This document shows positions 45,351 to 51,075 of a stretch of DNA of 64,000 nt, one piece after another. The DNA is from a virus (taxonomy: Duplodnaviria; Heunggongvirae; Uroviricota; Caudoviricetes): the IMG/VR virus record IMGVR_UViG_2880372215_000004. One strand, 5' to 3'. The position numbers and the translations under genes are program-made. Within the stretch, counting starts at the first letter, position 1. The number at the start of each line of letters is the position of its first letter. A model generated the notes under the pieces. It saw only the letters and a list, made by a program, of their open reading frames with translations. It made no database searches and was not told where the DNA came from.

Positions 45351-46934
45351 ATGACAGTAAAAATTTCTGGCGTGCTTAAAGATGGCACAGGAAAACCAGT
45401 ACAGAACTGCACCATTGTGCTGAAGGCCAGACGAACCAGCAGCACGGTGGTGGTGAACACGGTGGCCTCTGAAAATCCGGATGAAGCCGGACGTTACAGC
45501 ATGGATGTTGAGTACGGTCAGTACAGCGTCATTCTGTTGGTGGAGGGATTTCCTCCGTCACATGCCGGGACCATCACCGTGTATGAAGATTCTCAACCCG
45601 GTACGCTGAATGATTTTCTCGGTGCCATGTCGGAGGATGACGTCCGGCCGGAGGCACTGCGTCGTTTTGAACTGATGGTGGAAGAAGCGGCGCGTCACGC
45701 TGAGGAGGCGAAGAAGAATGCCGGAGAGGCGGAGACGTCCGCGAGGAATGCCGGCATATCAGCCAGTCAGGCAGAAGAGAACGCTGCAAATGCTGACACT
45801 TCAGCAGGGGATGCATCGGAGTCAGCCCGGCAGGCGGCAGAAAGTGCAGCCGCTGCAAAGCAGTCAGAGGAGGCGTCCTCGTCCTCGGCCTCTGCGGCCG
45901 CTCAAAAAGCCAGTGAGTCATTACAAAGTGCAACAGATGCTGAGTTGTCAAAAAAGACGGCAGAAAGTGCAGCCGGTAATGCAGCCAGGGATGCAACGAC
46001 CGCAGCAGAAAAAGCCCGGGAGTCAGCAGAAAGCGCACAGTCAGCGGAACAAAGCAGGATAGCGGCGGAAGAAGCCGTAAACCGAATCCCCACCGTGGTG
46101 GGGCCTCCCGGGCCAAAGGGGGAACCGGGGCCCGCGGGTCCTCAGGGGCCGAAGGGAGATAAAGGAGAGCGTGGAGACACCGGCCCGGCAGGGGCAACCG
46201 GCGAACGGGGACCGGCAGGTGATGCTGGTCCGGCAGGCCCGCAGGGGCCGAAAGGTGACAGGGGAGAGCGGGGAGAGACCGGTCTGACGGGAAATGCAGG
46301 TCCACAGGGTCCAAAGGGAGACACCGGGGCAGCAGGCCCGGCAGGCCCACAGGGACCGAAAGGAGAAACAGGTGCGGCTGGCCCGGTGGGGGCAACCGGA
46401 CCTCAGGGACCGAAGGGCGACCCGGGGGAGACACAAATCCGTTTTCGTCTGGGGCCGGCGAGCATTATTGAGACAAACAGCCATGGCTGGTTCCCGGGTA
46501 CAGATGGTGCGCTCATCACCGGACTGACCTTTCTTGCCCCAAAGATACCACACGGGTTCAGGGTTTTTTTCAGCATTTGCAGGTCAGGTTTGGTGACGGG
46601 CCGTGGCAGGATGTTAAGGGGCTTGATGAAGTGGGCAGTGATACAGGCAGAACAGGAGAATGACATGAACATACTAAAAAAACTTATGCAGCGTCTGTGC
46701 GGGCACGGAAAGCATGATGACCGTGAAGACGGGGAGTTACTTACAGCACAACTGCGTCTGGGGCCGGCAGACATCCTGGAGTCCGATGAGAATGGTATTA
46801 TTCCGGAGCAGGACAGGGTAATCACGCAGGTGGTGATACTGGATGCGGATAAAAAGCAGATACAGTGCGTGGTAAGACCGCTGCAAATCCTGCGTGCTGA
46901 CGGGACGTGGGAAAATATTGGCGGGATGAAGTAA
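45351..46934 (+). CDS. Side tail fibre protein with collagen-like region. The tracked 527-aa ORF looks like a frameshift-generated fusion with the downstream small gene
   Basis: The N-terminus [34 protein letters not shown] is Stf-like. It is followed by an Ala/Ser/Glu-rich rod and 36 GXY triplets. After ~46541 the plausible sequence continues in another frame (see findings). Confidence 0.75.
46101..46430 (+). repeat. Collagen-like GXY repeat region (36 triplets)
   Basis: [31 protein letters not shown]...[11 protein letters not shown], counted by hand. Confidence 0.9.
46665..46934 (+). CDS. Small protein downstream of the tail fibre (89 aa), probably an independent gene
   Basis: [89 protein letters not shown]. 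The ATG is preceded by GGAGAA. Its 3' end is duplicated at 50936-51005. Confidence 0.55.
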
Positions 46935-47001
46935 CCCGACAGCTTCACAAAACCGGAGTCCGGCTCCGGTTTTTGTTGTCATGTAAGGCAGATGTTTGTT
47001 A
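46863..47001 (+). repeat. Direct repeat copy 1 (3' end of tail-fibre-region gene plus terminator)
   Basis: About 139 bp, roughly 90% identical by eye to 50936-51075, including the terminator ACCGGAGTCCGGCTCCGGTTTTTG. Confidence 0.85.
46952..46976 (+). terminator. Rho-independent terminator ending the tail operon
   Basis: ACCGGAG-TCCGG-CTCCGGT followed by TTTTG. Confidence 0.7.
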
Positions 47002-47046
47002 AAGCTATTTAAGTCTGGAGTTTAAATTAAAATAGGGAGTTTTATA

Positions 47047-47621
47047 ATGCCGTTAAATTCGGAGATTAGATCAAGCTCATTTTTAATGGATTGAATGTCC
47101 TTCGAGCTCAAGTAGCATCTAGCGGTCGAGGGGAGTTTACATTAGGTAATGAGACTGTCAGCATTGTATTTAATGAAACCGATGGGCGTTTTCTATCCAG
47201 CGGCAGTAGTGGGGGATTGCTTACTGAGTTATTCCTTTATGGGTTTAATAACGGCCCTGAAGCTCTTCGCGATAGGATGCTCAGTATGCTTTCGGACTCA
47301 GGTGAAGCACAATCGCAAGAGAGTATTCAGGACAAAATATCTCAATGTAAGTTTCCTGTTAGTTCAGGAAATTTCCAGTGCCCGCCAGAGTCTATTCAGT
47401 GTCCAATTACACTAGAGAGACCCGAAGAAGGAGTGTTTGTCAAAAATTCAGATAGTTCGGCAGTATGCTGCTTATTTGATTTTGATGCATTTTCTCGTTT
47501 AGCTAGTGAAGGCTCATATCATCCACTGACCCGAGAACCAATAACGGCATCAATGATTATAAGTCCTGATAAATGTGTTTATGATCCTATCAAGGGAAAC
47601 TTCATTATAAAAGATAGTTAA
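47047..47621 (+). pseudogene. nleG: NleG-family T3SS effector (U-box E3 ligase) with a 5' frameshift in a T-run
   Basis: C-terminal U-box-like QCPITLERPEEGVFVKNSDSSAVCCLFDFDAFSRLASEGSYHPLTREPITASMII. The canonical N-terminus MPLNSEIRSSSF starts at ATG 47047 in another frame and stops at 47092. The tracked ORF begins at TTG 47091. Confidence 0.75.
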
Positions 47622-47960
47622 AATATTTTTCTCTGAGAGAGTATTGGCTGTCAGTAATTTGTAAAAAAACGCCGCAGACATCCAGAATATAAGAAGGTGT
47701 CTGTGGTTGGCAGGTTTCAGATGACTTGAAGGCGTCTTTATGTAAATGCATTTTTCTGTGGAGATGTTGTCGGAAAATATTGGATTAAAAACATAATCCA
47801 AGTCAAATAGTAAGTTTGTTTTTTTTGAGATTAGGTGTGTGTATTTAGAATTTTTATGATGTGTTTATTTTGTGGGGTATTTTAGAAAAAATATATTAAT
47901 CCTTATTAATAATAGCTGCCATCCATTTCAGCTATTATTTTAAAATAAACAAGTTAAAGC

Positions 47961-49286: not shown

Positions 49287-49663
49287 AATAAATCCTTATT
49301 ACATGTTTATATCCATTAATAATATCAATCCATTGATACTATTAGTGTCACATATCCGATGTGGACAGCTTTAATATATAACTGTTTGAATGCTTGATTG
49401 ATGTGACTTAGATCTCAAAATTAAGTTGTTAAATTTACCAGTTTATCGCTTGAACACTTAAAATAAATTATAAATGTTTCTGTTATTGTTTTTTATAGTT
49501 TAAATTATTGTTGGTTGTATAAGCTGATTACATTTTTACTCTAAGTGTTATAAATATTTTATACTGATATTAGTCTTATTATATATTTTTTTAATGAAAA
49601 TGAGCATAAAACTAAGACATATAATGCTTGGCAGCTTTATGCTCTTCTGATTGGCTGTATGTT

Positions 49664-49946
49664 TGATGACAAAAAATTAGCGCAAGAGGACAAAAAATCA
49701 CCTTGCGCTAATGCTCTGTCTCAGGTCACTAATCACATCTAACTCATTGATTAATTGTGACTCTAAATGTAGTGTTTTGTCGCGTTTTGCAGTCTATCAT
49801 TTAATCAATTGTATAAATAACATAATGATTTTTAATGTGTTTTTGTGATTTTATCCTCCTTCTGACATGGAAGTTGTTCGTTCAAAAATCTTATTAAATA
49901 TCAAGTTGTTAAATCTGGTAAGTCATTATTGGTCAAAATAAAATCA
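49664..49946. other. Fossil lambda-type attP region (P arm with sib/tI hairpin, core region, P' arm)
   Basis: Collinear with lambda attP from memory. Hairpin TTAGCGCAAG...CTTGCGCTAA at 49677-49711. Arm-type-like CAGGTCACTAAT. P' arm GGTAAGTCATTATTGGTCAAAATAAAATCATTAT, followed directly by the int remnant. Confidence 0.7.
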
Positions 49947-50935
49947 TTATCCGATTTCAATTTTGTCCCACTCCCGCCCGCGACTGTCCCTATAATGCGC
50001 CGCCATTGAATCAGATTTATGTCCAAGAAGACGTTGTGCAAACTTGTAGCCAATCTGGTTCCGATATAGCCTCGCGGACAGACTACGTAGTTCATGAAAT
50101 GTCGGTGGGTCTCCATCAAACGAGATCCCGGATGCATTTCGCGCCTTTGTTAAATACCGTGATACTGTGGCTGGAGAAAGTGGTTCGTGATAGGTTGATG
50201 CGATTATTGTTTCACTGCTGCTGGCCTCCCTGCATTTCTGTAGTGTATCAACCAGTGAGATGTCGAGTGCGTCAATGGTTAGAGCCAGCGGAATGGCAAT
50301 TTTGGCTCCTGTTTTACTCTGTCCAATGTGAAGATGACCATCGTTTATGTCTGACCACTTCATTCTGCACAAATCGCCCACTCTCTGCCCTGTAACGACA
50401 GCTAAATCCATTGACAGCCTCAGCCAGATGGGGAGGTGCTCAGCAGCATGGTAAATAGCGACATACTCATTAGCTGTCAGCCTTGAGCGCCTTACTTCTG
50501 ACTTTGCTGCACGGGTTGTTGTTACTGGATTCGTTGCCACATGCCCCTCGGCTATTGCCCCTCGAAAAACGTCAACAAGGGTTGACCTGATTACTCTTGC
50601 GGAAACCGCTTTACCTTCTGCGACGTAGGTGTTTAGCATTGCTGCCACCTCTTTCGTTGATATGTCAGTGAGCGGTTTGTCCGGCAATTTTCTTCGAATT
50701 GCCCTGATTTTGCTGGCGTAGTCGAGTAATGTTTTCGGCTTGCTCCCCCTCTAGCTGAGGATTGTTTCATATCGATCAAGCCACGTATGAAGAGTGATTG
50801 AGTCAGTGCCTTTAACCCTGTCCAGCAATGATTCGTGCCCACTTTCGCTGAAAAGCTCAATGTTGGTGTGAATGCTTCTGAAATTGCTACTCTTCTGTCT
50901 CTTCCCAGCCCGAACTCTTTTTTCGTCCTCGGGTC
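49947..50935 (-). pseudogene. Lambda-type integrase remnant (5'-truncated, one frameshift, one TAG)
   Basis: The 246-aa ORF is collinear with the lambda Int C-terminus (..GQRVGDLCRMKWSDI...HELRSLSARLY...LLGHKSDSMAAHYRDSRGREWDKIEIG). Upstream, LHTWLDRYETILS*RGSKPKTLLDYASKIRAIRRKLPD has TAG at 50751-50753. DPRTKKEFGLGRDRRVAISEA is in another frame. The first ~27 codons are missing. Confidence 0.85.
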
Positions 50936-51075
50936 AGTGTGTAGTAAGACCGCTGCAAATCCTGCGTGCTGACGGGAAGTGGGAAAATATTGGCGAAATG
51001 AAGTAACCCGATAGCTTCACAAAAACCGGAGTCCGGCTCCGGTTTTTGTTGTCATGTATGGGGGATGTCTGTTAG
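50936..51075 (+). repeat. Direct repeat copy 2 (tail-fibre-region 3' fragment plus terminator)
   Basis: Matches 46863-47001. It abuts the truncated 5' end of the int remnant. Confidence 0.85.

Follow-up and report, generated by a model that had tools for sequence, protein, structure and literature searches.

The window analysed here, a stretch of 64,000 nt on one strand of the IMG/VR virus record IMGVR_UViG_2880372215_000004 (Duplodnaviria; Heunggongvirae; Uroviricota; Caudoviricetes), contains a prophage right arm in which the 3' end of a tail fibre gene occurs twice, on either side of a segment carrying the effector genes nleG and nleA, a phage attachment site (attP) and an integrase remnant (int'). 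This arrangement raises the question of whether the segment is a cassette that its flanking repeats can mobilise, or whether the repeats are the trace of two phage right arms joined in tandem. A preliminary description of the window had taken the bracketed 3.9 kb for the att/int segment of a circular phage genome, followed by a second fibre 3' end with a different set of effectors, and had added that homologous recombination between the repeats could delete or amplify the module. Our analysis agrees with the tandem arms and gives the added claim no support: the repeats are very probably left over from an old illegitimate recombination in which the right arm of one phage came to be stacked in front of that of another.

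Positions 44000-56000 of the window correspond to the right arm of prophage Sp9 of Escherichia coli O157:H7 Sakai (CP-933P of strain EDL933), differing from it by one base in a C run. Outside of approximately 44-56 kb the window departs from Sakai, and its overall arrangement resembles that of strain 8368. The gene order is J, lom, tail fibre, repeat copy 1, nleG2-1', nleA (minus strand), spacer, att region, int' (minus strand) and repeat copy 2, followed by nleH1-2, nleF, a remnant of the insertion sequence (IS) IS1414, a second att region and ISEc8, with gene identities backed by Pfam (Table 1). Effector genes of the type III secretion system thus sit between the tail fibre genes and the right end of the prophage, as in an exchangeable effector locus (EEL) of lambdoid prophages in enterohaemorrhagic and enteropathogenic E. 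coli, a term that is said to go back to Tobe et al. in 2006. The window represents an E. coli O157:H7 effector locus of the Sp9/PPompW type.

The direct repeats and the int'/fibre junction

Self-alignment of the window returned two copies of the repeat, and only two in the 64 kb, in direct orientation (139 and 140 nt). They are identical at 129 of 140 columns (92.1%) with one 1-nt gap in an A run (BLAST E value 6e-54), lie 4,072 bp apart, and have 34 and 37 nt as their longest perfect blocks; similarity breaks off sharply at both edges. Each copy consists of the final 72 nt of a tail fibre open reading frame (ORF) up to its TAA stop (46934 and 51006), a terminator hairpin and approximately 25 additional nt. 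The hairpins, which were overlooked by a consensus terminator scan and revealed by direct folding, fold at -21.2 and -21.5 kcal/mol (z -4.7 and -5.1). The boundary of the effector cargo behind copy 1, at 47001, is evident from the divergence among prophages. An intact fibre-to-nleH region in the O39:NM strain F8704-2 lines up with copy 2 together with its downstream flank, but not with the flank of copy 1, and copy 2 is the native upstream region of nleH. The two orthologous fibre 3' ends, 8% diverged and followed by different cargo, stem from different phages, and both repeats very probably represent the same genomic position (fibre 3' end, terminator and left border of the effector cargo) in two different lambdoid phages.

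On the inner side of copy 2, homology to the int genes of phages HK022 and lambda reaches position 50934 and directly abuts the repeat. The Prokaryotic Genome Annotation Pipeline (PGAP) lists at this junction a 'tail fiber C-terminal, missing N-terminus' beside an 'integrase, missing N-terminus, frameshifted, internal stop' pseudogene. The repeats of about 139 bp, the fusion of the second copy to a truncated int and the change of effectors to nleH1-2 and nleF behind it, seen in both ORFs and Pfam matches, had all been noticed in the preliminary description and are borne out here.

A probe of 200 nt spanning the junction was found at 100% identity in 420 of 5,426 complete E. coli genomes, including Sakai and EDL933, the carriers belonging to O157:H7, O55:H7, O111:H8/H-, O121:H19 and others. 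The O111 junction is that of the window base for base. Since the junction is identical across serotypes, it represents a single old event that was passed between phylogroups and not an assembly artefact, and the composite arm has spread among E. coli lineages within the PPompW-type effector locus.

An attachment site and integrase remnant in arm 1

Positions 49667-50934 of the window align in one piece with the sib-attP-int region of HK022 (83.5% identity) and with that of lambda (68.5%), as expected of a segment of a circular phage genome, and the arm-type site blocks AGGTCACTAAT and GTCATTATTGGTCAAAATAAAATCATTA are kept in the alignment. For the sib hairpin a folding energy of -28 kcal/mol (z -7.3) was obtained, and the P' arm overlaps the 3' end of int. 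The core, CTTCTGACATGGAA, is unlike the cores of lambda and HK022; a search for the lambda core at this site gave no match, and the sole near-match in the window is at 53537. The string CTT[A/C]TGACATGGAA is common to the window attP, the vacant yfaT attB of O157, and both attL and attR of a prophage of strain 95JB1 that is integrated at yfaT. Since a phage P arm lies to the left of the core and P' and int to its right, the att site beside int' is a complete, unrecombined P-O-P' attP of the HK022/lambda family rather than a prophage junction. An attP left intact in this way would mean that the DNA of arm 1 was not delivered by its own site-specific integration. Stx1a-converting phages with a related integrase were compared for the core of this fossil and use an HK022-type core instead.

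The int' gene lacks 27 N-terminal codons and has one frameshift near 50876 and one in-frame stop. In tblastn comparisons with the HK022 and 95JB1 integrases, the amino acid identity was 82-83%. The catalytic domain of a tyrosine recombinase is present, a full-length ORF with the N-terminal arm-binding domain is not, and int' is therefore a pseudogene; xis is absent from the attP-int' module. The integrase had been called lambda-type, which stands as far as the lambda/HK022 family and the truncated 5' end are concerned, but the gene is HK022-like with a yfaT-type core and is not lambda's own.

A lambda-type attR in arm 2

The second sib and P arm (53346-53551) are 77% identical to the first and 79% identical to lambda, and the core that follows, GGCTTTTTATACTAA, is lambda-like but one T short in its T run. 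Past this core the homology to a P' arm gives way to bacterial sequence adjoining ybhB at the lambda attB, so that positions 53537-53587 match the ybhB side of that site and are host-derived. Sakai and O111 have 31 nt more of this flank, giving 67 nt in total after the core; these are identical to BL21 at 62 of 67 positions with one 8-nt gap, and the homology stops inside the ybhB terminator hairpin. The layout matches the BL21 junction and the real attR-ybhB junction of Sakai prophage Sp3. Phage sib and P arm lie to the left of the core, which makes this site an attR (P-O-B') and not a two-sided attB (B-O-B') of the attB-in-PP type. Judged from this sequence, arm 2 would once have formed the right terminus of a prophage that sat at the lambda attB or at a copy of that site. 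Because the two att fossils differ in core (yfaT versus lambda type), int' and arm 2 are not parts of one integrated element.

The host flank is interrupted by ISEc8, with the 8-mer GTTTTTCG at its left end (53580-53587) and CTGATGTC at its right end (56030-56037). Sakai has GTTTTTCG on both sides, its host flank continuing beyond ISEc8 after this 8-bp target duplication, and in O111, which is without ISEc8, the flank is uninterrupted. Because the flanking 8-mers of the window differ and the DNA to the right belongs to another prophage, these data imply a rearrangement mediated by ISEc8 in the window strain relative to Sakai, with the element marking the breakpoint.

Sakai (NC_002695.2 segment, 22102-22197) and O111 have, directly right of the junction that ends the ybhB flank, a stretch of approximately 96 nt that resembles a chromosomal tRNA-Ser gene and has no counterpart in the window arrangement. 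It is found at approximately 80% identity in nearly all E. coli genomes, and may be a further attachment-site fossil in the effector locus. The number of stacked arms is at least two, and probably three or more in Sakai or O111.

Parental layouts in other prophages

If two right arms were joined, each should have relatives in which it stands alone. In the 95JB1 prophage at yfaT the order is attL, int, xis and, at the other end, NleG, an IS fragment, nleA, attR, yfaT' and yfaS, with the intact cognate int beside attL. From the 5' end of nleA to the core (49270-49872) the window is 94.7% identical to this prophage (572 of 604 columns), and 95JB1 switches to yfaT exactly at the core, where the window runs on into P' and int'. 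This prophage thus shows the predicted layout of the arm 1 donor in integrated form. The Stx1 phage BP-4795, phage JLK-2012 and an O145:H28 prophage have nleA, the spacer, sib and the first approximately 70 nt of the same P arm, followed by espV-dinI-attR. Because these three keep nleA together with the spacer, sib and the start of the P arm, nleA has an ancestral link to the right extremity of such phages, with the window keeping the most complete version.

For arm 2, complete fibre genes lead directly into nleH-nleF in O39:NM F8704-2 and in E110019, which is the parental layout of that arm, and Sakai Sp3, at the lambda attB, carries nleH1-1 on its right arm. The nleH1-1 prophage of strain 2313 was set aside as an example of a lambda attB prophage, since it is located near dacD instead. 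The two arms in tandem that had been proposed are therefore matched on both sides, by a yfaT prophage that carries nleG and nleA next to attR and by an arm 2 that ends in a lambda-type attR with ybhB DNA.

Proposed origin and alternative explanations

From the anatomy of the locus, its junction, the two att fossils and the two parental layouts, all of which can be seen directly, we infer the following order and route of events. Arm 1 (fibre, nleG', nleA, sib, attP and int') would be an unbroken piece of a circular phage genome. The phage, HK022-like and carrying nleA, would have had the 3' end of chromosomal yfaT as its integration site, and its DNA would have come from a genome that was circular or cointegrated. 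The int gene of this donor would have been broken at codon 28 and joined, essentially without homology, to the fibre gene of a second phage 72 nt before its stop. This second phage would have been a resident prophage with nleH and nleF as its cargo, and its right arm would before that have closed off a lambda attB prophage on the right-hand side. The circular donor may have entered through a homologous crossover in late or tail genes that both had in common, with a subsequent deletion of approximately 40 kb that joined int to the second fibre end, or a double crossover may have made the exchange in a single step, with homology at its left side and an illegitimate join at its right. The scar today is an inert structure that retains the native upstream region of nleH and a terminator, and the locus, in a well-studied O157 prophage, is a case of ordinary lambdoid mosaicism, unusually well preserved, and not a new kind of element.

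Several observations weigh against this origin or limit its detail. The P'-int' portion of the window is only approximately 85% identical to the 95JB1 integrase, versus approximately 95% for the portion from nleA to the core, and the true donor must therefore have been a relative of 95JB1 or itself a mosaic, rather than that prophage. The phage collection contained no full, uninterrupted donor (fibre, nleG, nleA, attP with a yfaT-type core and intact int), nor any record of the composite arm. In a survey of complete E. coli genomes no intact fibre gene matched copy 2 at more than 95%, so that the second parent is unsampled. The sequence does not separate cointegrate with deletion from double crossover, nor one order of stacking from another. 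The host flank of the attR could equally stem from a host-derived attB that already lay inside a prophage, a class of sites described in the accessible text of Nakamura et al. (2021; PMC8112680).

The competing explanation with the most in its favour is that the repeats are an active RecA substrate and the nleG'-nleA-attP-int' segment a facultative cassette, lost or amplified at an appreciable rate, in line with the claim made at first. RecA recombination in E. coli has a minimal efficient processing segment of approximately 23-27 bp, and the perfect blocks of 34 and 37 nt, in direct orientation and 4,072 bp apart, are at or just above it; loss or amplification is thus mechanistically possible and plausible, but a divergence of 8% would trigger mismatch-repair anti-recombination. 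A synthetic query for the collapsed fibre-to-nleH junction found no contiguous match of high identity in the 5,426 complete genomes, its best full-length matches being O111, in two pieces, and un-nested prophages that have diverged (93-94%). Two natural deletions have endpoints outside the 139-bp repeats. In O111:H- 11128 (compared segment 6790-7914), nleA and attP were lost by a deletion from nleG' into int' and both repeat copies were kept, and in O157:H7 Show KS 470-1 (segment 5660-6698) a deletion from int' (approximately 50876) into nleF removed copy 2, nleH1-2 and most of nleF. The preliminary description had pointed to the presence or absence of nleA among relatives; nleA content does vary between related effector loci, also in the accessible text of PMC8112680, but O111 lost the gene by another route than the repeats, and we regard the active cassette as unlikely. 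An integrase-mediated, att-dependent insertion of one phage into another (prophage-in-prophage) followed by decay could account for the attR-like site with host flank in arm 2, and PPompW loci are documented landing pads with host-derived attB in the same accessible text. This explanation is highly improbable for the window, since the att site by int' is an unrecombined P-O-P' with phage P arm and sib in the place of the host-like B sequence of an attL, both sides of the int'/fibre join are coding sequence and the join is distant from any core, and two different cores (yfaT and lambda) cannot be the two ends of one element.

Direct repeats around a 3.9-kb insert also have a superficial likeness to the footprint of a duplication or insertion: replication slippage or unequal exchange might have duplicated the fibre 3' end locally, or the repeats might be the target-site duplication of a mobile cassette. 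A length of 139 nt far exceeds any target duplication, no transposase or IS ends were found between the copies (47002-50934), and the flanking repeats are diverged fibre sequence; moreover, the copies are 8% diverged and each lines up with a different cargo that occurs elsewhere behind intact fibre genes, and the inner ends consist of an integrase fragment and a phage attP and not of cassette termini. We give this explanation very little credence. An assembly artefact, by collapse or expansion among near-identical lambdoid prophages, is a reasonable concern in O157, which has many similar prophage tail regions (a median of eight fibre 3' ends per genome), and had been named as an outcome that would undo the preliminary description. 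Its probability is negligible, as the junction is 100% identical in the 420 independently assembled complete genomes, drawn from several serotypes, and is shared by derived variants.

Relation to known systems

Among known phages the attP-int-xis regions of HK022 and lambda have the same order as arm 1 (sib, P arm, core and a P' arm overlapping int) and an integrase of approximately 357 amino acids. In the window, by contrast, the core and target are those of the yfaT 3' end, the integrase is a pseudogene and xis is absent. In BP-4795, JLK-2012 and 95JB1, nleA is accompanied by the spacer upstream of it, the sib and the P-arm sequence that the window has. JLK-2012 also has fibre and nleG (DUF1076) genes upstream of nleA, as in the window, whereas BP-4795 from approximately 50 kb onward has IS3-family elements and another effector upstream of nleA and no fibre-nleG pair. 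BP-4795 and JLK-2012 keep approximately 70 nt of the P arm and then have another site, and in 95JB1 the site is split by integration; only the window-type locus has a whole attP with most of int.

Aberrant excision of the lambda bio type, by which specialised transducing phages form, yields b-region cargo, P-O-B' and a short piece of host DNA from the bio/ybhB side that ends in an illegitimate join. The arm 2 fossil has this expected layout, its illegitimate join falling within the terminator hairpin of ybhB. It differs from lambda bio in that only 67 nt of host DNA are kept and in that the partner is another effector/att region and not a phage early region. Intrachromosomal recombination between prophages could give the same result.

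The closest described locus is the PPompW EEL (Sakai Sp9 / EDL933 CP-933P) of Nakamura et al. (2021; PMC8112680), the accessible text of which covers gene content, IS-driven variation and the role of the locus as a landing pad. According to that text, the PPompW EEL is widely distributed across phylogroups, Sakai is treated as the ancestral layout, three host-derived attB sequences (attB-in-PP_1-3) lie within the EEL, and how host att DNA enters phages is left unresolved. The window shows the same locus and the same genes (nleA, nleH, nleF and the nleG family) downstream of the fibre, with IS elements. It shares with prophage-in-prophage, as presented there, the gathering of effectors by stacking in a defective right arm and the occurrence of host att DNA inside the EEL; it differs in that its join is illegitimate and not att-mediated, and in that the first fossil is an attP and the second a one-sided attR, neither being an attB. 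In the literature found, including the accessible text of PMC8112680, there was no description of an internal fibre duplicate, a yfaT-core attP-int' or a lambda-type attR with ybhB flank, and searches for locus tags such as ECs1813 and Z6023 gave no matches.

It is interesting to speculate that the stacked att fossils are more than scars, serving as a docking site in trans in the case of the attP and as evidence for a lambda-bio-like entry in the case of the attR, although we consider this rather improbable. At least one O157 strain has a vacant yfaT attB, and prophages of the 95JB1 type have an intact yfaT-type integrase. If a co-resident or incoming phage provided such an integrase in trans, the P-O-P' adjacent to nleA could still be its substrate. 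In that case, phages might dock in the effector locus by attP x attP exchange, or recombination with yfaT might drive large inversions or excisions. Likewise, the one-sided attR with its ybhB flank could be direct evidence that lambda-bio-like aberrant excision brings host att DNA into the phage genomes of enterohaemorrhagic E. coli, which would answer the question left open in the accessible text of PMC8112680. The one-sided attR fossil is a relevant clue to that question, and one that does not discriminate aberrant excision from other routes.

The locus bears the clinically relevant effectors NleA, NleH and NleF of enterohaemorrhagic E. coli, and its scars show how effector arrays get built, with whole phage right arms, each with its own attachment site, spliced in series and the composite passed between lineages. 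The int'/fibre junction is a datable marker for tracing the spread of the effector locus across serotypes. Our understanding of lambdoid mosaicism is unchanged by it; the locus is a particularly legible example in a reference pathogen.

Features of the locus and surrounding DNA

Table 1. Features of the two stacked right arms, with positions in the 64,000-nt window
Feature	Position	Strand	Remarks
Tail fibre gene, resident prophage (arm 1)	45351..46934	+	Single 527-aa ORF; Pfam phage_tail_N, Collagen, Phage_fiber_C
Repeat copy 1	46863..47001	+	Fibre 72-nt 3' end, hairpin ~46949-46973 with T run, ~25 nt to cargo boundary
nleG2-1' (NleG/DUF1076)	47091..47621	+	Annotated as frameshifted pseudogene; Pfam T3SS_NleG, E 1e-45
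nleA/espI type III effector gene	47961..49286	-	Annotation at 100% identity; no Pfam family
AT-rich spacer upstream of nleA	49287..49666	.	Accompanies nleA in other phages (95JB1, BP-4795, JLK-2012)
sib hairpin (int-transcript processing site of lambda/HK022-type phages)	49667..49715	-	Aligned to annotated HK022 sib
attP	49716..49960	.	P arm 49716-49858, core CTTCTGACATGGAA 49859-49872, P' arm 49873 to ~49960
P-arm-core-P' string of window attP, example			CCTCCTTCTGACATGGAAGTTGT
int' pseudogene, HK022-like tyrosine integrase	49947..50934	-	Residues 28-355 of 357; Pfam Phage_integrase PF00589, E 2e-38
Illegitimate junction, int codon 28 / point 72 nt before stop of second fibre gene	50934..50935	.	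Microhomology at most 1-2 nt
Repeat copy 2	50935..51074	+	Fibre 3' fragment 50935-51006, hairpin ~51019-51049, ~25 nt
nleH1-2 effector kinase	51104..52024	+	Annotated start 51114; Pfam OspG_kinase
nleF effector (caspase inhibitor)	52090..52659	+	Pfam NleF_casp_inhib
IS1414 (IS256-family) remnant with astA/EAST1 ORF	52674..53341	-	Later insertion into arm 2; annotation, BLAST
Lambda-type attR fossil of arm 2	53346..53587	.	sib, P arm, core GGCTTTTTATACTAA 53537-53551, B', 36 nt host DNA (ybhB side)
ISEc8 (IS66 family)	53588..56029	-	Later insertion into host-derived flank; annotation; absent in O111

Scans of 44-57/64 kb against Rfam (E up to 0.01) and for tRNA genes gave no matches. Within the IS1414 remnant, between nleF and the attR fossil, PGAP annotates an ORF for the heat-stable enterotoxin EAST1 (astA) at approximately 53078-53143 on the minus strand. 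The tail fibre gene contains internal direct repeats of 75 nt (46173-46391), 72% identical and 144 nt apart, which correspond to the collagen-like Gly-X-Y region (Pfam Collagen). The annotations of Sakai and strain 8368 give this gene as separate N- and C-terminal coding sequences. A run of four C at 46537-46540 of the window, versus five in Sakai and the other top matches, fuses the two into the 527-aa ORF; the difference may be genuine, or it may reflect a slippery site or an error in sequencing the homopolymer.

At its left end (1-6100) the window has the chromosomal flank ynfE-ynfD-ynfC-speG-ynfB-ynfA, followed by a truncated Arm-domain integrase, where Sakai Sp9 has ompW. The window prophage is a hybrid, in keeping with the inversions between ompW and ydfJ prophages in the accessible text of PMC8112680. 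To the right of ISEc8 lies DNA of another prophage (IS256 fragment, DinI, truncated integrase and RecE). There, PGAP annotates on the minus strand (56900-59100) a DinI-like gene, a second tyrosine integrase without its N-terminus and a truncated RecE adjoining the IS256 fragment, and this stretch is the left end of another degraded prophage in tandem.

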